A stretch of 64,000 bases of DNA from Synergistaceae bacterium (GCA_031274425.1 JAISQE010000067.1:1-64000), one strand, 5' to 3'; positions 3,322 to 63,750 are shown, counted from the stretch's first letter. A program made the numbers and translations. The notes: generated by a model from the letters alone, not told the origin.

Positions 3322-4050
3322 TTATCCGTGCTTTTTGTCGCGGGCAAAGCGCCGATACCAAAGCAAGTATCCCGCAGCCAGGGCAACCGCGCAGGCGACG
3401 CTGAGAAATGTCAGCAAATGCAGGTAACGTTCGAGCAATTCCTGATGCTCTCCCAGCAAATAGCCGACCACCGTCAGGACCAGGGCCCAAAGCCCCGCCC
3501 CAATGGAGGTGTAGAGCACGAAAGTCCCCAGTTTCATCCGAACGATGCCGGCCGGAAGGGAGATGTATTGCCGAATGACGGGCAGCAATCGTCCCACCAG
3601 CGTGCTGACGTGGCCGTGGCGTTCGAAAAATGCGTCCGCTTTTCCGAGAGATTCCTCCGAAACGAAAAAATACCTTCCGTACTTGAGCAAAAACGGCCGT
3701 CCGAACTTGAGGGCGAACCAATAGTTGAAAAGGGCCCCCAGAATGCTCCCCGCGATCCCGGCGATCACGACGACGGCGAAGGACATCTCCCCTTTCCAGG
3801 CGAGATATCCCGCCGGCGGCAATACCACTTCGCTGGGAAACGGGAAAAACGAGGATTCTAGAAACATGAGCGTTACGATCCCCGCGTAGCCCAGTCTCCC
3901 GATCGTCGCCACCAGCCAGTTGGTAAGGCCTTTTATCAACGCGATCAGGGTCCCGAGATTATAAAAAAAGATCCCCCCCGCAACGACGACACCCGCCAAG
4001 CCGACAGCGAGAAGCGCTCCGGCCGAAACGCGTTTGCGCTGCTCGCTCAC
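3322..4050 (-). CDS. DedA/SNARE-associated family membrane protein
   Basis: Multi-TM protein with DedA-type motifs (FFPFPSEVVLPPAGYLAW...GRLLPVIRQYISLPAG). Confidence 0.75.
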   Translation of the reverse strand: MSEQRKRVSAGALLAVGLAGVVVAGGIFFYNLGTLIALIKGLTNWLVATIGRLGYAGIVTLMFLESSFFPFPSEVVLPPAGYLAWKGEMSFAVVVIAGIAGSILGALFNYWFALKFGRPFLLKYGRYFFVSEESLGKADAFFERHGHVSTLVGRLLPVIRQYISLPAGIVRMKLGTFVLYTSIGAGLWALVLTVVGYLLGEHQELLERYLHLLTFLSVACAVALAAGYLLWYRRFARDKKHG

Positions 4051-4940
4051 GACGGGATTTCCTCGCGCAAAGCGTCTTCGCGAATTCGCCCCTCCACCAC
4101 CAGCGCGGTCCTCCCTTTAAGCCAGGCATGGCAGGATCTCCTGTCGGGGGCGAAACTCAACCGAACCTCATTGATCCCTCCAGGGTTGCGGACGCGGATC
4201 GTACGCGCCGCATCTTCATGCATGGCATCCTCATGCGCGGCATCCCCGGCGACCGCAAAGGCCACGGCCACGGCTACGCTTCCCGTGCCGCAGGATTCCG
4301 TCAGGTTCTCGACGCCTCTTTCGTAGGTGACGGCTTTCGCCTCGGTTTGCGAGATCGACTGCGCGAAAGACACGTTGCTGCCCTCGGGGAAACGGGTAAA
4401 ATCGTGGGAGATCTCGCGTCCTATCTCGATTTTCGAGGGGGCGTCGATCGCGTCGTAATCCTCCACGAACAGCACGCAATGAGGAACCCCCGCCGTCAGA
4501 AAAATATAGGGAAACTCGACGTCGCGACATCGCAGGCTTTGGCCGAAAACGATCCCCGCGAGATCCAAATTCCCCATATCCAGTTCGACGTAGGGAGACT
4601 CCACGCGGGCGCGCATCAAACCGGCCGGGGTCGTAAAGCTCATGGACGCCTCCGCCAAATTTCTTTCGAAGGCATAACGAGCAAGGGCGCGCGCGCCGTT
4701 TCCGCACATTTCGCCCTCGCTGCCATCCGAATTGAAGATGCGCATGGCGAAATCGGCCGTTTCCCCGTCCGTGTTCTTTGGGTTTTCGACCACCAATATC
4801 CCATCCGCTCCGACCGAAAATTTTCTGCGGCACAAAAGCCTAGCGAACCGCGCGAGTTCCTGGGACGAATAGCGAAGGTCCCGATTTTCCAGCACAATAA
4901 AATCATTCCCGTTTCCATGGACTTTAGTAAAATCGATCAA
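4047..4940 (-). CDS. dapF: diaminopimelate epimerase
   Basis: MIDFTKVHGNGNDFIVLENRD...GEMCGNGARALARY motifs; 4-nt overlap with dedA. Confidence 0.85.
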   Translation of the reverse strand: MIDFTKVHGNGNDFIVLENRDLRYSSQELARFARLLCRRKFSVGADGILVVENPKNTDGETADFAMRIFNSDGSEGEMCGNGARALARYAFERNLAEASMSFTTPAGLMRARVESPYVELDMGNLDLAGIVFGQSLRCRDVEFPYIFLTAGVPHCVLFVEDYDAIDAPSKIEIGREISHDFTRFPEGSNVSFAQSISQTEAKAVTYERGVENLTESCGTGSVAVAVAFAVAGDAAHEDAMHEDAARTIRVRNPGGINEVRLSFAPDRRSCHAWLKGRTALVVEGRIREDALREEIPS

Positions 4941-9882: not shown

Positions 9883-10080
9883 CTAGGCGTAGGGAAGCAT
9901 CCTCTTCATCTGGTCCATGAGGGTAGGGGAGACATACCCTGTTTTGCGCATCCTGCGCGTGCGTTTGGCGCTTTTGTGCTCCAGAATATGAGAGCGTCCA
10001 ACCTTACGATAAGCGAGCTTACCTGTCGCCGTATAAGAAAACCTTTTCTTCGCACCGGAGTGCGACTTCAATTTCGGCAT
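9883..10080 (-). CDS. rpmI: 50S ribosomal protein L35
   Basis: [14 protein letters not shown]...; start at the internal Met of the 71-aa ORF. Confidence 0.9.
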
Positions 10081-10211
10081 ACGAATGTCCCCTTCCAATG
10101 TAAACGGCGTCTACGCCGTCGTCGATTTTTACACATTTTTAAAAATGTCAAAAACATTTCCTTCCGCCGGAGCGGAAAGCAACCGGTCCGTAAGACCCGC
10201 CGGCTCTATGT

Positions 10212-10805
10212 TCATGCCGAATCCTCCGTGGCGGCGGCGGATTCTAGAGTTTCCTCTTTCGGTTTGATTTTTTCCTTTTTTGTTTCCGATTTTGCTTCTG
10301 AAGGCGGAATCGACGCGCCCGTATGGCTTTTCTTGGGTTTGGCCGGCGCGACGGGGGTCAACATGATGCGCATGTAACGCCCCTCCATTTTGGGCGAACC
10401 CTCATTTTTGCCCAGGCCCTCGCATTCCGCGACGACGCGGTTCAGCACCTCTTCTCCTTTGGAAAGAAAAGACATCTCGCGCCCTCTGAAAAACACGGAG
10501 ACTTTCACCCGATGCCCTTCTTCAAGGAAATTTTTTATGGCCCGCACTTTGAAGTCGTAATCATGCTCGTCGATTTTGGGGCGCATTTTCATTTCCTTCA
10601 ACGTTTGCACCTTTTGTTTTTTGCGGGCGTCTTTTTCTTTCTTTTGGAGCTGGTATCGGTATTTGCCGTAGTCCATGATCCGGCATACCGGCGGTTTCGC
10701 CAAAGGCGCCACTTCCACCAAATCCAGCATACGCTCCTCGGCCATCTTCACAGCCTCAACTGTCGCAATCTGCCCGACCTTGACTCCATTCTCGTCTACC
10801 AACAA
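10212..10805 (-). CDS. infC: translation initiation factor IF-3 (start codon uncertain, probably non-canonical)
   Basis: IF3 N- and C-domains. Frame stays open upstream of the TTG at 10805 (…EPRINNEITSPQV LLVDENG) with no ATG/GTG/TTG. IF3 genes classically start with AUU/AUC. Confidence 0.85.
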   Translation of the reverse strand: MLVDENGVKVGQIATVEAVKMAEERMLDLVEVAPLAKPPVCRIMDYGKYRYQLQKKEKDARKKQKVQTLKEMKMRPKIDEHDYDFKVRAIKNFLEEGHRVKVSVFFRGREMSFLSKGEEVLNRVVAECEGLGKNEGSPKMEGRYMRIMLTPVAPAKPKKSHTGASIPPSEAKSETKKEKIKPKEETLESAAATEDSA

Positions 10806-11399
10806 AACCTGTGGAGAAGTGATTTCGTTATTGATTCTGGGCTCATCTTCTTCAGTTCTCGGGACTATAGCCTTTCACCTCCAGATTTTATAAAAAGCCT
10901 GAAAAGATGCTTCTCAAGCCTAAAACAACAAAAAAGGACCTACCTTTTGGCGGCCCCCGAATACAATACCATCATTTGCTTTTTTCCACGATGGAATTTT
11001 AACCAGGCAACAAAAAAACATCGCGCAGGTGAGAGGGGCTGACCTCTACTTTAACCGATTCGATTATGAAATATACCATACTTTCTTTTGACATACAACC
11101 TAATTTCTCGAATTTTTGTAGTGACTCAAACTTCGTTTTTAAAGCAAGGCCCTTGAAAAATCGATAATGGATAACAAAAACAAGCTAAAAAGAAACAGCA
11201 TGAGTTCTCTTTTTCCGATGATGGTCCGATGATCCATTCTTTCATTGCTCGTTGTGATCGCAGATCATGGCTAGTTAGGATATAATAAAAAGAAAAATCC
11301 CATTTGCGACAAAACATGCTGTTTGCACATTCATTATTCTTTTAAAAAAAATTATGGAATAGTGTTGTTTTCATCTAATCCAAAGGGAGCGGGGATGTC

Positions 11400-12227
11400 A
11401 TGGCAAAGGTAACGATTCAGAAATTGTACGAGATGAAGGGCAAGGGGGAGAAAATTTCCTACGTCACGGCCTATGATTTTGGGCAGGCGAGCTTGGTCGA
11501 AAAGGCGGAAATAGAAATGATCCTCGTCGGAGACTCTCTTTCCATGACCATGCTGGGTAACGCCTCCACCGTTCCATTGACGACCGACGAAATGATCCAT
11601 CACATCAAAGCTGTCGTCAGGGGGGCGTCCTCGCCCATGATCGTGGGCGATCTCGTCTTCGGCTCCTACAACGAGGGCCCGGAACAGGCCATCCGCAGCG
11701 CCAACCGACTGCTGAAGGAGGGCGGCTGCGACGTCGTAAAGCTCGAGGGCTGTATGCCCGAGATCGTCTCGGCTATGGTGAAAGCGGGCATCGGAGTCCA
11801 GGGGCATATCGGCCTGACCCCTCAGACCGCGGGGTTGCTCGGAGGCTTCAAACTGCAGGGCAAAAATCTGGACGCGGCGAAAAGGATCATCGATGAGGCC
11901 AAAGCCCTCGAACAGGCGGGTGCGTTTTCCCTCGTGGTGGAATGCGTCCCCGAGGAACTGGGGCGCGCGATCACCGAGGCCGTCAAAATGCCCGTCATCG
12001 GCATCGGCGCCGGGCGCTGGTGCGACGGCCAGGTGCTGGTGTACCACGATTTACTTGGTCTGTTCGACCGATTTACTCCGAAGTTCGTGAAAAAGTACGC
12101 CAACATTGGCGATCAAATCGTCAATGCCCTGAAGGACTACAAAGACGAGGTGCGTGGGGTGAAATTCCCGAGCGACGAGTACGTCTTCGGCGGCGTCACT
12201 CGGGAAGACATCGAGAAAATACGCTGA
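11400..12227 (+). CDS. panB: 3-methyl-2-oxobutanoate hydroxymethyltransferase
   Basis: KISYVTAYDF...ILVGDSLSMTMLG... PanB signature; RBS GGGAGCGGGG upstream. Confidence 0.9.
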   Translation: MAKVTIQKLYEMKGKGEKISYVTAYDFGQASLVEKAEIEMILVGDSLSMTMLGNASTVPLTTDEMIHHIKAVVRGASSPMIVGDLVFGSYNEGPEQAIRSANRLLKEGGCDVVKLEGCMPEIVSAMVKAGIGVQGHIGLTPQTAGLLGGFKLQGKNLDAAKRIIDEAKALEQAGAFSLVVECVPEELGRAITEAVKMPVIGIGAGRWCDGQVLVYHDLLGLFDRFTPKFVKKYANIGDQIVNALKDYKDEVRGVKFPSDEYVFGGVTREDIEKIR

Positions 12228-25131: not shown

Positions 25132-26499
25132 ATGACTGTGCCGAACATAGACGCGAACGCTGGGGGAAGCACGGAAAAAATTCAGGGAAAAAATCAAGAT
25201 TTGAAAGAGCGCGCGTGGAAGGCGATCGACGAACGCGCGGAGGATCTCGGGCGCTTTGTTCGGGACATCGGAAAAAACGCCGAGGTCGGTTTCTTTGAAA
25301 CGCGGACCTCGGAGAAGGTCGCGGATTTTTTGCGGAGCCTGAGGTTGCCCGTCGAGAACGGATTTGCGTTGACGGGCGTCGAGGGGCTGTTCGACACGGG
25401 GAAACCGGGCCCGAAGGTGGCGGTGTTGGGGGAGTTGGACTCCGTGGTCTGTTTCGACGCGCCCGACGCGAACCCGGAGACGGGGGCGGCGCACCAGTGC
25501 GGGCACCATGTGCAGCTCGGGGTCATGCTGGCGACGGCGGTGGGGCTGACGGGTTCCGGAGCGGCGTCCGAACTTGCCGGCAAGGTGGTTTTTATGGGGG
25601 TCCCCGCGGAGGAATACATCCAAATCGAGCGACGCCTGAAACTCAAAGATGAGGGTAAAATCCACTTTATCGGCGGCAAAGCGGAGCTGATTCGCCTTGG
25701 GCGATTCGATGACGTGGACATGACGATGATGATCCACGCCTCCTCTAATCGTCCGAGGGCCAGTGTGGACCGAGGGCGGACGAGCAACGGCTTCGTCGGG
25801 CTCACGATTCGCTACATCGGGCGTCAAGCCCATGCCGCGGGCAGCCCGGACCAGGGGATCAACGCCCTCTCCGCCGCCGTTCTGGGCATTTCCGCAGTGA
25901 ACGCTTTGCGCGAAACGTTCCGCGACGAGGATCATGTACGGGTTCACTTCATCATCACCAAGGGCGGGGACCTGGTGAACTGCGTGCCCGACGACGTGCG
26001 GCTCGAAGCCTACGTCCGCGCCAGTTCCGTACCCGTGATCGAGGAGACCCTGACCCGAGTCGCCCGCGCGTTCAAAGCGGGAGGCGACGCCGTCGGGGCG
26101 AAGACGGAATGCAAGGTGTTGCCGGGCATGTTTCCCCTTGCCGGCTGCCCCGACCTGTACGAATTGTTCTATGAAAATTCCGAGCCCTTCGTCGCCCCGG
26201 AGGACTTCTTCGACGGCGGGCACATGGCGGGTTCCACGGACATGGGGGACATCAGTCAGATCATGCCGGCCTGTCATCCCATGACGGGCGGGATGGACGG
26301 GGTGCTCCACGGGGCGGACGCGCGGGTCGTGGACTACGGCGCGGCGGTGATCGCTCCCGGAAAGGCGATGGCCGCCACCGTGATCGACCTCTTGTTCAAC
26401 GACGCGGAGAAGGCCCGGCGCATCCTGTCCTCGTTCAAACCCAACCTGACGAAAGAAGTCTACCTCAAAAAACTGAACGATTATTTCGAGTACAAGTAG
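25132..26499 (+). CDS. M20 family amidohydrolase / peptidase
   Basis: AHQCGHH metal-binding motif and M20D-like fold; RBS AAGGGGG. Confidence 0.7.
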   Translation: MTVPNIDANAGGSTEKIQGKNQDLKERAWKAIDERAEDLGRFVRDIGKNAEVGFFETRTSEKVADFLRSLRLPVENGFALTGVEGLFDTGKPGPKVAVLGELDSVVCFDAPDANPETGAAHQCGHHVQLGVMLATAVGLTGSGAASELAGKVVFMGVPAEEYIQIERRLKLKDEGKIHFIGGKAELIRLGRFDDVDMTMMIHASSNRPRASVDRGRTSNGFVGLTIRYIGRQAHAAGSPDQGINALSAAVLGISAVNALRETFRDEDHVRVHFIITKGGDLVNCVPDDVRLEAYVRASSVPVIEETLTRVARAFKAGGDAVGAKTECKVLPGMFPLAGCPDLYELFYENSEPFVAPEDFFDGGHMAGSTDMGDISQIMPACHPMTGGMDGVLHGADARVVDYGAAVIAPGKAMAATVIDLLFNDAEKARRILSSFKPNLTKEVYLKKLNDYFEYK

Positions 26500-26523
26500 A
26501 ACACGTCACGTAGCATATAGAAC

Positions 26524-27138
26524 ATGGAGGAAATGAACATGCGCAGATTTTTGATTTTAACGGTCCTTGTTTCGATTTTTGCGTCGGGGACCGCGTTTGC
26601 GGAATACGACGTCAGTGGTTTGTGGCTGCTGGAGGGCAGCGGGTACGCCGAAAAAAGCCCCGTGCGGTCCGAGCTGACGGACACCGGGACGCTCGACATC
26701 AAAACCGAGACAAAGGACGGGGTCCAGTATATTGTGGGCTATTCCCTGGAACTGCGGCTCGACGCGTCGCGGTTCAACATCAACGCGTGGAAGGACTCCA
26801 AGATCGTGCTTCTGGACATCCCCGTCGTGGTTCCGGAGTTGAACCCCACGACGAACCGCCCCTTCGAGCTGCCCCCCGTCACCATCGACGGCTTGACCTA
26901 CGAGGTGACGTTCACCACCACGACGTCAGGAACCGTGAAGATTTACGGCTACATCGACGTGGACGTGGTGGGCAGCGTCGAGATCAACTCCATAAGCGTC
27001 ATTTGGAAAAGCGGAACCTCCAAACCGGATGTCCCCCAAATGACCAGCGGCTGCGATTCGGGTATGTCCTGGGTCTTGTTGGCGTTGGTTCTAGGGAGCG
27101 GGAGGGTTTGCCGACGCTTCCGGCGAGGCGGACTCTAA
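26524..27138 (+). CDS. small secreted protein with a C-terminal sorting-signal-like tail (SGC-DSG + TM helix + Arg-rich end)
   Basis: N-terminal signal peptide (MRRFLILTVLVSIFASGTAFA). C-terminus ...TSGCDSGMSWVLLALVLGSGRVCRRFRRGGL, tripartite like PEP-CTERM/GlyGly-CTERM-type signals. Confidence 0.6.
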   Translation: MEEMNMRRFLILTVLVSIFASGTAFAEYDVSGLWLLEGSGYAEKSPVRSELTDTGTLDIKTETKDGVQYIVGYSLELRLDASRFNINAWKDSKIVLLDIPVVVPELNPTTNRPFELPPVTIDGLTYEVTFTTTTSGTVKIYGYIDVDVVGSVEINSISVIWKSGTSKPDVPQMTSGCDSGMSWVLLALVLGSGRVCRRFRRGGL

Positions 27139-27900
27139 AACCCGGCGGAGGCCGGCGACGGTGAATCCGTTGGCTTCCAGAGCTTCTTTGACGGCGAACG
27201 CCAACTTTGCGGCGCCGTTGTAATCTCCGTGGATACCGATGGAGGATGCCTTCATCGGTATCGGCGTTCCGTTCGCGGACAAAAGCACGCCCTCCTTCAT
27301 CAGTTGTACCATGCGTTGGGCCGCGGTGGGGGGATCGGAAATAATCTCGCCCCGTTCGCCTTTCGGGATCAAGGAACCGTCCTCGCGATATCCGCGATCC
27401 GCGAAGACTTCGCTCGCAAAGGATATGCCCACGTCGGACGCCGCGGACTCGAAACAGGTTCCGCTTTGTCCCAAAAGGACCGCGCTCTTGTCCGTATCCC
27501 TGACGGCGCAGGCGATGGACTTCGCCGCCGCCAGCTCCGCGGCGGCCCTTCTATAGAGCGCGCCGTGGGGTTTTACGTACTCGAGCCTCACGTTGTTCGC
27601 CCGGCATATCGCCGCCAGCGCGCCTATCTGGTAGAGCGAGTAAACGTAAATTTCGTAGGGAGTCATACCGAGATCCCGCTGTCCGTAGCCCTGGAGATCC
27701 GGATAGCCCAATTCAGCCCCGATGTTGACGCCCGCGCGTCGAGCCGATCCGACCGTCGTCTGCATGACGATGGGGTCGCCCGCGTGCAGTCCGCAGGCGA
27801 TCGACGCCGAACTTACGATGCGCAGCATCGCGTCGTCCATCCCTCTTTGCCAGATCCCGAAGCTTTCGCCCAGTGTGCTGTTCAAGTCGATCAAAGGCAT
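27091..27900 (-). CDS. pxpA: LamB/YcsF family protein (5-oxoprolinase subunit A-like)
   Basis: MPLIDLNSTLGESFG...; no pxpB/pxpC nearby. Confidence 0.8.
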   Translation of the reverse strand: MPLIDLNSTLGESFGIWQRGMDDAMLRIVSSASIACGLHAGDPIVMQTTVGSARRAGVNIGAELGYPDLQGYGQRDLGMTPYEIYVYSLYQIGALAAICRANNVRLEYVKPHGALYRRAAAELAAAKSIACAVRDTDKSAVLLGQSGTCFESAASDVGISFASEVFADRGYREDGSLIPKGERGEIISDPPTAAQRMVQLMKEGVLLSANGTPIPMKASSIGIHGDYNGAAKLAFAVKEALEANGFTVAGLRRVLESASPEASANPPAP

Positions 27901-27907
27901 GTGGCGC

Positions 27908-29338
27908 TCAATCCTCCTGCTTGCGTGGAGCGAACATTTGAAGAAACGTCTTATGGGTGTCGCGCGGCAAAATACGATATCCTTTTTTTTCTTTGGTGAT
28001 CCATAAAAAATAATCTTTGTAAAACGAGGTCGCCATTTCCAGAATCGATTTGCCTTTATTGTCTTTGATGGTTTCGTAAGCGTTCTTCAAGATGCGGTCC
28101 TCGTCGCTGTCCCATCGAAACGTGCCCGCTCCGTAGGCGATGGCCTTTTCGGCGGATGTGGTCGGAAAGACCGGCAGGAGGATCGTATGATCCGCCCAAT
28201 CGTACGTCCCCAACCCCTGCCCGGGAATGAAGATCACCTGCGGAACGCCGTACATGCGAATGCGAGGCACCCCGAACATGTCCATGTCCAGGTCGCTCAT
28301 TTCTTCCATTATTCGAGACGCGGTTTCGTAAAGCATGGGCTCGGAGTCATGGGGGCACAAAAGCGATTGTTCGCAACGGGCGACCTTGGCGGGGACCGCC
28401 ATGTATTCTTTTTTCTTGGTCAGCATGTTCTTGAGTTCTTTACGCATCATCTGCTGAGAAAACTGGGCGCACGCGTGGGAAATTTTTTCGGCCTTGCGCC
28501 GGATTTTATCGCTTTCCTGCCGGCAGTAGATGATTTTACGCGCCAGGATTTTCGTGGATTCGTGAAGAGCGGTGAACATCTCGAGTTCCGGTAGCCCCAG
28601 CGGCTCTTCTTCGTCCTTTTGGGCTATGGAGAGCTGGGTCTCCATCACGCGTTCCGCTTCGTTGTAGCGAAAACGGTCCTGCGACATCGCCTGTTTCAGG
28701 TCGTCTTTAGCCTCGCGATATTCTTTGGTCCGCATGGAGGCCTTTGTGGCGGAGATCAGCGTCCGGCTCATGTCGGAGACCAGGGCGTCCAAATCGGTGC
28801 CCGTCATGTTCTTGCTGCGGGAGACGATCTTCAGGATCTCAGAGTTTCGTTTTTCCTGCAAGGCGGACAATCGTTTTTCGAGTTCCTCGATTTTGTCCTC
28901 CGTCTTTTCTCCCGACGGGGAGACCGGGAGGGGATTCCTCGTGATCATGCCCCAACAGTCCGCGATGAAGTCCGAAAAAGCTCGGTAGGAAAAAACCCCA
29001 AGGGCAAACTTCGACGTCAGGGCGAGGGACGCGTCGAATTTTTTGTTGCGCGGCGTGATTTCGTCGTGCAAAAATCCGAAGTCGATAAAGAGGCGCTCTT
29101 CCTCGTCGAAGGTCAAGGCGGAGGGAAATGACTCCGTCTGCGCGTCCAAAATCGCGAACAGAAGATCCCAATATTTATCCGAGAGCTGCCCCCAGGTTTT
29201 CCTGGCTTGCGCTTTGTCCTCGCTTTTATTCGAGGAAGCGTACTGCAGATATTTATCGGCGATCTTCCCGATTTCCTCCGCCGTGTTGACGACGTCGGGC
29301 ACGTTTTTCCATCGTTTGAACTCGATTTTCGCGGCCAT
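27908..29338 (-). CDS. hypothetical cytoplasmic protein, K/E-rich with coiled-coil segment; lower GC than neighbours
   Basis: 476 aa from ATG 29338 (RBS AGGGGGA 6 nt upstream; the TTG at 29368 is less likely). No recognisable domain. Confidence 0.5.
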   Translation of the reverse strand: MAAKIEFKRWKNVPDVVNTAEEIGKIADKYLQYASSNKSEDKAQARKTWGQLSDKYWDLLFAILDAQTESFPSALTFDEEERLFIDFGFLHDEITPRNKKFDASLALTSKFALGVFSYRAFSDFIADCWGMITRNPLPVSPSGEKTEDKIEELEKRLSALQEKRNSEILKIVSRSKNMTGTDLDALVSDMSRTLISATKASMRTKEYREAKDDLKQAMSQDRFRYNEAERVMETQLSIAQKDEEEPLGLPELEMFTALHESTKILARKIIYCRQESDKIRRKAEKISHACAQFSQQMMRKELKNMLTKKKEYMAVPAKVARCEQSLLCPHDSEPMLYETASRIMEEMSDLDMDMFGVPRIRMYGVPQVIFIPGQGLGTYDWADHTILLPVFPTTSAEKAIAYGAGTFRWDSDEDRILKNAYETIKDNKGKSILEMATSFYKDYFLWITKEKKGYRILPRDTHKTFLQMFAPRKQED

Positions 29339-29654
29339 CTCGATCCCCCTGAGTGGAATATCCAACATTCAGTGCTTACGTTCCTCCGCAAACTCCGAAA
29401 CTTGTTTTAAGTATAACACTTTCGTACGTTTGACCCAAAGGAAGAGCGAGACCCCAAAACCGTAAGGGAAAATATTGAAACGGAAGTTCGCCATTTGAAT
29501 CTTCGAAAAATCACCGTCCCCCCGGTCGCGCCGGGGTTCTTTCGCCGTTTCCCCCAAAGACGCGTCGCGTGAGACGTTTTATGTTGTTTCATGCGACGTT
29601 TCACGCGGCTTTCAGAGAAAATTTTAAGAGCAAAAGGCGGGCAGGGAATATTCA

Positions 29655-62007: not shown

Positions 62008-63750
62008 TTGTATAGACTACGTAAAGCCGCTTTCGCGGTGTTGTTCGTTTTCTCGTCGCTCGTTTTCTCCCCCGCCGCCGGCGCATGGGCGGCGAACCCG
62101 GAGGACGCGTTCAGCGCGAGGCCCGAGGCGTCCCTTTATTTCGCGTTGCGCCTGGAGGATCTGGGCGGGATGCTCAAAAAAATTTTTTCGCCGGCCAATA
62201 TGGAGATGCTCGCGAGCCTGGTGGATCCCGAGGACGCTCAGGGAATCCGGATCGCGGCGAATTTGGCGTCTCAGCTTCCCGCGAAGTCGGTCGCTTTCAT
62301 CGCGGGGATGGCGGGCAAGGCGGACCAAGAACTTCCCTTCCTCCAAATAGCGGCCTCCATGCCCGAGGAGGTTCGGGCCAAGCTGGACTTGGTCGCTCAG
62401 GGCAAGGCCACGCCCGAGGACCTGATCACGCTTCTTCTGGGCGACGCGGGACTGTTGTTCGCGGGAGAGCTGAACCCCGTCGTTCGAGAGGGCTCGAAGG
62501 GCCTGTATTACCTCCTCGACGAACTCGACGCGGGGAGCCCGGTTCTGGCCGCCCGAGAGAATTTGCTCTTGATCGCCCTTTCCTCGGCTGACCTGGAGGC
62601 CTCTTTAGCCGCGACGGAGAAGGCGGAAAACCGCCTTGCCTTCAAGCGCCGTTTCGAGAGCCCCAATTACTGGCTGATGCACTTGGACGTTCCGGCGCTC
62701 GCCAGCTTTGCCGAGGACGACCTGAAAAAGGAATTCGATCTGAAGCTCCTGAAATCGTACTTCAAAGCGCCGCTGGATTTCGAGGTGGCCTTCGACGCAA
62801 AGCCCGGGAGCTTCCTCGTTTCCAGTGAGGTCAACGCTCTGGAGGCTTTGACGGACGCATCCCGCTGGGAAAAAATAAAGCCGATACCCGGCGCGGGCCT
62901 GTTTCTTGCGGGAGGGGGCAAATTGTTTCTCGGTCTGAGCAGCGTGTACGCCTTTAAGGCGTCGGACTGGAACGTCTACCCGGAAATCGCCGCGACGTGG
63001 GGTAAATTCCTCAAGGAACTGGAAAAGAGGGGCCTCGCCGAAAAAGACGTGGAGGACCTTCTGACGGGCGCCATTTCCCTGGTCTTCGGAAGCGACGCCA
63101 CGATTTTGGGTAATCGGGCTCCGGGAGGGTACATCGCCTTGAGCGGGCAAGAGGGCGCCGCGTCCAAAATTTTGAACGCGATTTTGGAGGACGAGGCCTT
63201 TTCGCAGGCTGTCCCTCTATCGCCCTTGACGGTGGACGGCTGGAGTTCGCTCTTCATGGTGGATCCCGCCTTGGTTCCCGTTTCGCTGCTTTTGGGGGTT
63301 TCGAAAGACACGCTCTTCCTGGGCGTCGTTGACCCCAAAGGATTGGACAAGAAGCCGGAGTTCCCCTCGGAAGCCGCCGATCTGTTCGAAAACGACCTAT
63401 GTGTCTCGGGATTTTTCGACATTGCGGCGACGTGGGAATTTTGGAGAAAAGAGGCCTCCGACTCGACGTCGCCTTTGGGAGCGCTGCTGGCTCAGGATCC
63501 CGCCGAACTGGACATCATAAAAAATCTTCTGGAGTCGGAGCTTGCGGTGAGTTCCTTCAAGCTCTGGGCACCCACGCTGGAAACGTCCTTCGCGGAGCTC
63601 AAGATCGTCGACGTTCCGCGGGAAAAACGCCTTTTGCCCAAACTCCTGAAAGCGGTCGAGGCGTGGGAAAGTAAAGAAGAAGATAGAGAAGAAGAAAAAG
63701 GGGAAGGAGAGGAAAAAGAAGGGGAAGAGGAGCCTTCCGACCCCGAGTGA
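62008..63750 (+). CDS. secreted hypothetical protein with acidic Glu-rich C-terminal tail
   Basis: Signal peptide (MYRLRKAAFAVLFVFSSLVFSPAAGAWA); 580 aa; C-terminus KEEDREEEKGEGEEKEGEEEPSDPE. No recognisable domain. Confidence 0.5.
   Translation: MYRLRKAAFAVLFVFSSLVFSPAAGAWAANPEDAFSARPEASLYFALRLEDLGGMLKKIFSPANMEMLASLVDPEDAQGIRIAANLASQLPAKSVAFIAGMAGKADQELPFLQIAASMPEEVRAKLDLVAQGKATPEDLITLLLGDAGLLFAGELNPVVREGSKGLYYLLDELDAGSPVLAARENLLLIALSSADLEASLAATEKAENRLAFKRRFESPNYWLMHLDVPALASFAEDDLKKEFDLKLLKSYFKAPLDFEVAFDAKPGSFLVSSEVNALEALTDASRWEKIKPIPGAGLFLAGGGKLFLGLSSVYAFKASDWNVYPEIAATWGKFLKELEKRGLAEKDVEDLLTGAISLVFGSDATILGNRAPGGYIALSGQEGAASKILNAILEDEAFSQAVPLSPLTVDGWSSLFMVDPALVPVSLLLGVSKDTLFLGVVDPKGLDKKPEFPSEAADLFENDLCVSGFFDIAATWEFWRKEASDSTSPLGALLAQDPAELDIIKNLLESELAVSSFKLWAPTLETSFAELKIVDVPREKRLLPKLLKAVEAWESKEEDREEEKGEGEEKEGEEEPSDPE

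Follow-up and report, generated by a model that had tools for sequence, protein, structure and literature searches.

We analysed a stretch of 64,000 nucleotides from a Synergistaceae bacterium (GCA_031274425.1, JAISQE010000067.1:1-64000; the whole stretch is called the window here), in which a gene on the plus strand encodes a small precursor protein composed of a signal peptide, a predicted beta-barrel and a cysteine-containing C-terminal tail. By position and descent, as judged from sequence comparison, this tail is a diverged form of the Synerg-CTERM signal for protein sorting, a type of signal represented by the NCBIfam model TIGR04564. An earlier, sequence-only reading had described an open reading frame (ORF) at 26524..27138 with this C-terminal end, and the frame is present in the sequence and ends in ...TSGCDSGMSWVLLALVLGSGRVCRRFRRGGL*. 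The start given there, 26524 for a protein of 204 residues, had to be corrected to 26539 and 199 residues, because a Shine-Dalgarno-like GGAGGA lies inside the proposed frame at a suitable spacing from the ATG at 26539, and because a 199-residue NCBI protein, P0001 ('MAG: hypothetical protein LBQ42_05560 [Synergistaceae bacterium]'), corresponds to 26539-27135 with 100% identity and coverage. The same entry, from a Synergistaceae metagenome-assembled genome (MAG), bears out the Synergistetes lineage that had been guessed from the sequence. The interval 26539-27138 is a genuine coding sequence, since its third-position GC content (GC3) is 0.80, similar to that of confirmed genes nearby, since it has 54 full-length homologs with identities down to 31%, and since AlphaFold2 returns a confident model for its product. 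Two overlapping ORFs in other frames (26622..27164 on the plus strand and 26481..26702 on the minus strand) showed no comparable coding support. The features of the gene and of its surroundings are collected in Table 1.

Table 1. Features of the gene, its neighbours and selected related loci. Positions are those of the window unless a locus is named; residues are numbered from the ATG at 26539.
Feature	Position	Strand	Basis or remark
Shine-Dalgarno-like GGAGGA	26526..26531	+	read from sequence; within the first-proposed ORF, 7 nt 5' of ATG 26539
Coding sequence, 199-aa precursor and stop	26539..27138	+	ORF list, identity with P0001, GC3, homologs
Putative Sec-type signal peptide, residues 1-21, MRRFLILTVLVSIFASGTAFA	26539..26601	+	by eye: basic n-region, hydrophobic h-region, A-x-A c-region
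Mature passenger, residues 22-158, eight-stranded up-and-down beta-barrel	26602..27012	+	AlphaFold2 model
Linker, residues 159-169, GTSKPDVPQMT	27013..27045	+	pLDDT 56-79; family consensus GTxKPDIPDxx
Signature motif S170-G171-C172-D173-S174-G175	27046..27063	+	homolog conservation; C172 codon 27052-27054
Hydrophobic transmembrane segment, residues 176-188, MSWVLLALVLGSG	27064..27102	+	sequence; AlphaFold2 helix 175-195
Basic cytoplasmic cluster, residues 189-196, RVCRRFRR, then GGL	27103..27135	+	sequence
M20-family peptidase gene	25132-26499	+	upstream
LamB/YcsF-family gene	27091-27900	-	convergent
Overlap of the coding sequence with the LamB/YcsF 3' end, 48 nt	27091-27138		last 16 codons, L185 to stop, covering LGSGRVCRRFRRGGL
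486-aa protein	27908-29368	-	DUF4315 match, sub-threshold only
580-aa protein	62008-63750	+	no Pfam match
L001, genes with tails	2-727, 10001-10603, 10861-11961		one family member, two non-family proteins
L014 and L016, Peptidase_C39_2 genes, ~190 aa	10585-11157 (L014), 3699-4265 (L016)		each begins 4 nt before the barrel stop codon
L015, long non-coding stretch	~10900-11160		downstream of the homolog
L015, (CATA)n microsatellite	11340-11390		after the non-coding stretch

The precursor begins with a Sec-type signal peptide recognised by eye (MRRFLILTVLVSIFASGTAFA|EY). Signal peptidase I likely cleaves at AFA|EY; A21 and its AFA-x-YD context are conserved across the family, and there is no lipobox cysteine. 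After the passenger, a linker that is probably flexible in the model leads into the tail, in which a Gly/Ser/Cys motif, a hydrophobic helix and an arginine cluster follow one another, as the sequence-only reading had seen. The transmembrane (TM) segment joins the motif without a spacer and is followed directly by the basic cluster (C172-DSG-MSWVLLALVLGSG-RVCRRFRR-GGL). The cluster starts at R189, 16 residues past C172, and 19 residues (173-191) separate C172 from RRFRR.

An initial search returned 23 homologs, and a search with a profile raised the number to 55, all of them 135-227 residues long; one truncated fragment was left out, and the family counts below refer to the remaining 54 full-length sequences, which are 31-100% identical to the window protein. 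All named homologs come from Synergistaceae or Synergistales, and a profile scan of reference genomes found three loci, all of them in uncultured Synergistaceae or Synergistales MAGs; the corresponding scan of metagenomes gave seven loci, which were very short. Within this family, Gly-Cys is present in every sequence and SGC in 51. Only eight columns of the alignment are invariant, and G171 and C172 are two of them. The position after the cysteine is Asn or Asp in 45 sequences, and Gly occupies C+3 in 45. The distance from the cysteine to the basic cluster is 16-23 residues in 51 of 53 sequences, with a median of 18, and the window copy stands at 16. The residues of the TM segment, on the other hand, vary freely among the homologs. 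Considering that Gly-Cys and the spacing are kept while the helix residues vary, the tail is, as far as an alignment can tell, a recognition motif and a membrane-stop signal with a constant spacing between them, a pattern that would be unexpected for a plain anchor.

The known signal of this kind is Synerg-CTERM, which is described as a cluster rich in Ser and Gly that ends in one invariant cysteine and runs without a spacer into a short TM segment, with an invariant proline in a leucine-rich stretch, and an arginine cluster; it is restricted to the Synergistales (doi 10.1101/2023.06.07.544157). The tail of the window copy has the Ser/Gly cluster and the single cysteine (T-S-G-C172), and its lineage, that of the named homologs and that of the three reference-genome loci are all Synergistaceae or Synergistales. 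The curated model TIGR04564 has 27 positions and a cutoff of 22.5 bits. Six of the 54 family members reach this cutoff, namely P0028 (35.9 bits), P0030 (32.5), P0027 (26.5), P0036 (25.5), P0026 (23.2) and P0032 (22.5), and one of them, P0026, was independently named 'Synergist-CTERM protein sorting domain-containing protein' by JGI. All six matches align at the homologous C-terminal position and carry the same small N/D-x-G stretch past the cysteine. At the stringency of a 22.5-bit cutoff, TIGR04564 is the sole NCBIfam model matched by any member. Sub-threshold matches were found in 10 of the first 23 homologs, always at the SGC position, which aligns with model positions 2-5; P0003, with 75% identity to the window protein, scored 16.2 bits over positions 2-26. 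In a few members, MYXO-CTERM models score as high as TIGR04564 or higher; P0039 alone just exceeds the TIGR03382 cutoff, with 16.4 against 15.85 bits.

Over the barrel, the six passing homologs share 56-61% identity with the window protein, and their tails and that of the window copy are therefore homologous in position and by descent. A model built from these six tails only was searched against 1,260 ORF C-termini taken in six frames from 243 kb of the window and related loci. It selected family members exclusively, and the window tail scored 19.8 bits (E 3.4e-5); in the window, the target ORF alone scored clearly, the next ORF reaching 2.8 bits. The sequence-only reading had likened the tail to a Synergistetes-specific sorting domain with an invariant cysteine, and the six passing homologs together with the six-tail model identify this domain as Synerg-CTERM. 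It had also proposed a search with *-CTERM profile models. That search left the window copy unmatched and succeeded in the six homologs at the homologous position; because TIGR04564 misses the window copy, its membership is shown through the homologs and through the lineage-adapted model. In terms of the proline, 29 of the 54 homologs, including all six that pass TIGR04564, have one within the TM segment and 25 have none. On this alignment, the proline described as invariant is dispensable in the family at the sequence level.

Tails of this kind are also carried by other proteins in a sister genome. In L001, a locus of a related Synergistaceae MAG, three different proteins with a tail composed of a Gly-rich cysteine motif, a TM segment and a basic cluster are encoded within 12 kb: a beta-propeller repeat protein, a member of the family and an adjacent, unrelated protein of 366 residues. 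Neither of the two non-family proteins matches TIGR04564. Between the family member and its 366-residue neighbour, the DNA of the tail, starting at the Gly-Cys codons and ending with the stop, is identical at 75 of 90 nucleotides, and 18 of 22 identical residues are written with identical codons; just upstream, only 7 of 30 nucleotides match. This comparison points to a tail that was recently exchanged or duplicated as a module with its boundary at the cysteine motif. A tail-only profile found no other carriers in a protein collection, and an exhaustive search of representatives returned only the family's own representative. With 29 positions, this profile is too short for significance against 1.8 billion proteins. 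When run locally it recovered 18 of the 23 members at E < 10, so that the tail search was probably limited by its word-index step.

Regarding the machinery, phylogenetic profiling predicts that Synerg-CTERM is processed by MrtS, a CPBP/Rce1-like glutamic intramembrane protease (WP_005661921, PF02517, model NF040589), and links the signal to a divergent type II secretion system (T2SS) whose GspC/L/M/N components are covered by NF041616-NF041619; both predictions come from a preprint of 2023 (doi 10.1101/2023.06.07.544157). For the sister enzyme MrtX, experiments have demonstrated cysteine-dependent cleavage of MYXO-CTERM, also in E. coli, and the working model for MYXO-CTERM consists of Sec export, lipidation of the cysteine, cleavage after the cysteine and transfer to the surface by the T2SS (PMC11980579). 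The sequence-only reading had expected an exosortase or archaeosortase; the literature predicts MrtS and the T2SS in its place. Its remark that the processing enzyme was not characterised still holds at the experimental level for Synerg-CTERM, as MrtX alone has been tested.

Taking these results together, we consider it probable that the gene encodes a small barrel destined for the cell surface, with a diverged Synerg-CTERM tail that would be modified at Cys172, cleaved by MrtS and displayed through the T2SS. In this pathway, the Sec signal peptide would carry the precursor over the inner membrane and would presumably be removed. The barrel would then fold in the periplasm, with the protein kept in the inner membrane by its C-terminal helix and arginine cluster. 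The steps past export are proposed by homology and by analogy. The side chain of the invariant Cys172 would be modified, probably with a lipid if the protein behaves as MYXO-CTERM substrates do with MrtX, and MrtS would remove the helix and the arginine cluster directly past the cysteine. Finally, the T2SS would move the folded barrel over the outer membrane, where the modified cysteine would anchor it at the surface.

Several points weigh against this reading. On the one hand, the modification of the cysteine, the cleavage by MrtS and the dependence on the T2SS are computational predictions for Synerg-CTERM as a whole (doi 10.1101/2023.06.07.544157). On the other hand, TIGR04564 gave no match to the window protein, whole or as an isolated tail, even at E <= 10, and Pfam and NCBIfam searches of both forms returned no sorting-domain match of any type. 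The TM segment of the window copy, MSWVLLALVLGSG, is an uninterrupted run of 13 hydrophobic residues and lacks the proline. The six-tail model was trained on the same protein family, and its score therefore speaks for homology and not for retained function. No second ORF bearing such a tail was found within the window. Also, no gene for MrtS, another CPBP protein, the T2SS or a sortase-type enzyme was found among the scanned genes of the window or in ~180 kb of related flanks; the scans covered TM-rich ORFs and large genes in the window, motif scans and NCBIfam at related loci, and Pfam tables for seven further contigs. In the window and related contigs so scanned, there was no PF02517, NF040589, exosortase or Gsp gene, and the scanned window ORFs with at least three predicted TM segments encode transporters, a VTT-domain protein and a CDP-alcohol phosphatidyltransferase. 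Considering that sorting enzymes need not adjoin their substrates, the absence of these genes from the window and flanks is uninformative.

The same observations could be explained if the tail of the window copy had decayed into an uncleaved membrane anchor, which would tether the barrel to the inner membrane in the periplasm. The window copy is missed by a model that six of its homologs pass, its TM segment has no proline and its helix is shortened, and its final 16 codons are shared with the convergent LamB/YcsF gene, an overlap that could have restricted or reshaped the distal tail. However, S-G-C, the small residues after the cysteine and the spacing to the arginine cluster (16 against a median of 18) have all been retained, and 25 of the 54 homologs equally lack the proline, which is thus not required in the family. 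The six-tail model still gives the window tail 19.8 bits, and an invariant Gly-Cys would be needless for a plain anchor. Accordingly, we regard a decayed anchor as unlikely.

The passenger of this tail is a beta-barrel in the AlphaFold2 model, which was built on the family alignment. The mean predicted local distance difference test (pLDDT) score is 82, and about 90 over residues 25-158. The strands cover residues 27-157, in agreement with the earlier description of the protein as beta-rich. Searches with Pfam, with NCBIfam and with the family profile against all PDB sequences gave nothing significant for the passenger; comparison with solved structures brought up generic barrels and no specific relative. 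Foldseek returned no match at E <= 0.001, its top partial matches being soluble ligand-binding barrels. The polarity of the barrel was judged from conservation and not from the model coordinates: in the family alignment, the hydrophobic face of the strands is conserved (mean column entropy 0.71, 7.5% charged residues), and the polar face is variable (mean column entropy 1.29, 37% charged). Such a distribution is what a soluble barrel with a hydrophobic interior and a polar surface would show, and we infer that the passenger is of this kind. The turns are short at both ends except for one conserved loop. The most conserved stretch of the protein is the loop P103-T104-x-N-x-P108-F109-x-L111-P112, which is a candidate functional site. 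Judging from its modelled fold, the passenger may be a small module for binding ligands or for recognition at the surface.

An integral eight-stranded barrel of the outer membrane, of the OmpA, OmpW, OmpX or opacity type, is the other way in which the passenger could be seen. The strands are long and amphipathic, and the homolog P0045 was named 'opacity protein-like surface antigen' by JGI. A barrel of this type would be expected to have a hydrophobic, lipid-facing exterior that varies and is almost uncharged. This fits poorly with the conserved hydrophobic face and the variable, charged polar face, which form a hydrophobic-core pattern, and also with the short turns at both ends and the soluble barrels among the partial Foldseek matches. 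No outer-membrane protein model of Pfam or NCBIfam matches, and the C-terminus is a linker, a TM helix and an arginine cluster in place of a C-terminal beta-signal. We therefore hold this identity to be very improbable. A local match to NF045527, the model of the Legionella effector LegT, was found at residues ~103-148 (~26845-26982) with 14-17 bits against a cutoff of 1200. It recurs weakly in 11 of the 23 members over the conserved PFELPPVT...LTYEVTFT region and is probably a compositional coincidence.

That the tail is instead a signal for an exosortase, archaeosortase, rhombosortase or classical sortase was already disfavoured and is hardly credible: those systems share the succession of a motif, a TM helix and a basic cluster, and P0027 gives a very weak GlyGly-CTERM match (8 bits against a cutoff of 15.5), but the tail contains neither PEP nor LPXTG, as the sequence-only reading had stated, nor PGF or GlyGly, the window protein and its tail are unmatched by any of the corresponding models at E <= 10, the scanned window ORFs include no exosortase-like protein with several TM segments, and phylogenetic profiling connects cysteine-type signals with CPBP proteases, a link that experiments bear out for MYXO-CTERM.

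Comparison with known systems places the window protein closest to Synerg-CTERM and MrtS, with which it shares the lineage, the signal peptide, the Ser/Gly cluster ending in cysteine, the short TM segment and the basic cluster. It differs in that TIGR04564 passes only six of the 54 members and gives the window tail no score, in the proline, which is absent from the window copy and 25 homologs, in the Asn or Asp after the cysteine in 45 members, and in a passenger that has no Pfam or NCBIfam family. MYXO-CTERM of Myxococcus xanthus, carried for example by TraA and processed by MrtX, has the same tripartite signal with an invariant cysteine and is the only cysteine-type system with experimental support. 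Its pathway of Sec export, presumed cysteine lipidation, CPBP cleavage and T2SS display (PMC11980579) is proposed to apply likewise to the window protein. However, MYXO-CTERM belongs to another phylum, and its signal is longer, often contains GCGC and has no proline in the TM segment (doi 10.1101/2023.06.07.544157). The window protein comes from the Synergistaceae and not the Myxococcota, and it is unmatched by the MYXO-CTERM models TIGR03901 and TIGR03382. GlyGly-CTERM, represented by VesB of Vibrio cholerae and processed by rhombosortase, also combines a tripartite signal with retention in the inner membrane, removal by an intramembrane protease and T2SS-dependent surface retention, but it has a Gly-Gly motif and no cysteine, it is cleaved by a rhomboid serine protease, and its attachment is believed to proceed through transamidation to a lipid. 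The GlyGly-CTERM models do not match the window protein. In terms of the passenger, the Neisseria proteins NHBA, fHbp, TbpB and HpuA, together with YceI, avidins and nitrobindin, resemble it at the level of the fold only, with 5-13% identity, and are not related to it in sequence. The surface lipoproteins of Neisseria are anchored by an N-terminal lipobox cysteine and exported by Slam or Lol.

In the window, the immediate neighbours of the gene encode leucyl-tRNA synthetase, the M20 peptidase, the LamB/YcsF protein and the DUF4315-like protein; phenylalanyl-tRNA synthetase beta subunit, a hybrid histidine kinase and other housekeeping genes lie farther out, and a protein of 580 residues is encoded near the end of the window. 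The stop of the M20 gene lies only 39 nt from the start of the target gene, and the two may be co-transcribed. A promoter and terminator scan found no sigma-70-like promoter and nothing useful on the plus strand. An M20-dimer gene also stands two genes upstream of the family homolog in locus L013. Between the target and the LamB/YcsF gene there was no terminator-like site, and their overlap, which includes LGSGRVCRRFRRGGL, may have limited or altered the distal tail in the window copy. No conserved synteny was found around the window's subclade of the family.

Another, distant subclade (L014, L015, L016 and L019) has an arrangement that is absent from the window: an ODP/flavodoxin gene, a methyltransferase gene and a polysaccharide-deacetylase-like gene upstream, and then the barrel gene. 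In L014 and L016, the barrel gene overlaps the start of a Peptidase_C39_2 gene (Table 1), which suggests that the two proteins are co-translated. The peptidase is papain-like, with its cysteine in YTCGVA and its histidine in DGHY, and has no signal peptide; none is encoded in the window. The non-coding stretch downstream of the homolog in L015 resembles a structured leader or riboswitch-type element.

A further reading, about which we are doubtful, is that the family represents a lineage-specific, proline-less variant of Synerg-CTERM in uncultured Synergistaceae, whose tails behave as exchangeable DNA modules homogenised among unrelated genes within each genome, on a novel barrel that is lipid-anchored at its C-terminus. 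If this is true, the curated model would miss the variant in about 90% of the members, the tails would presumably track each genome's own MrtS, and the barrel would be like the Neisseria surface lipoproteins but anchored at the opposite end.

In summary, the Synerg-CTERM signal itself was known, and this study leaves the known picture unchanged; it adds one more member, on an uncharacterised barrel family, together with boundary conditions. Synerg-CTERM is one of four cysteine-containing C-terminal signals for which CPBP/Rce1-like processing has been proposed recently, with tests for MYXO-CTERM alone. In this respect the family offers a compact test substrate for MrtS, with ~180 mature residues and a confidently modelled fold. 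The sharing of the tail at the DNA level in L001 is a small but concrete sign that such signals move as modules. Considering that all 54 members have the invariant Gly-Cys and only six of them reach the TIGR04564 cutoff, the surface proteomes of uncultured Synergistaceae are likely under-annotated.

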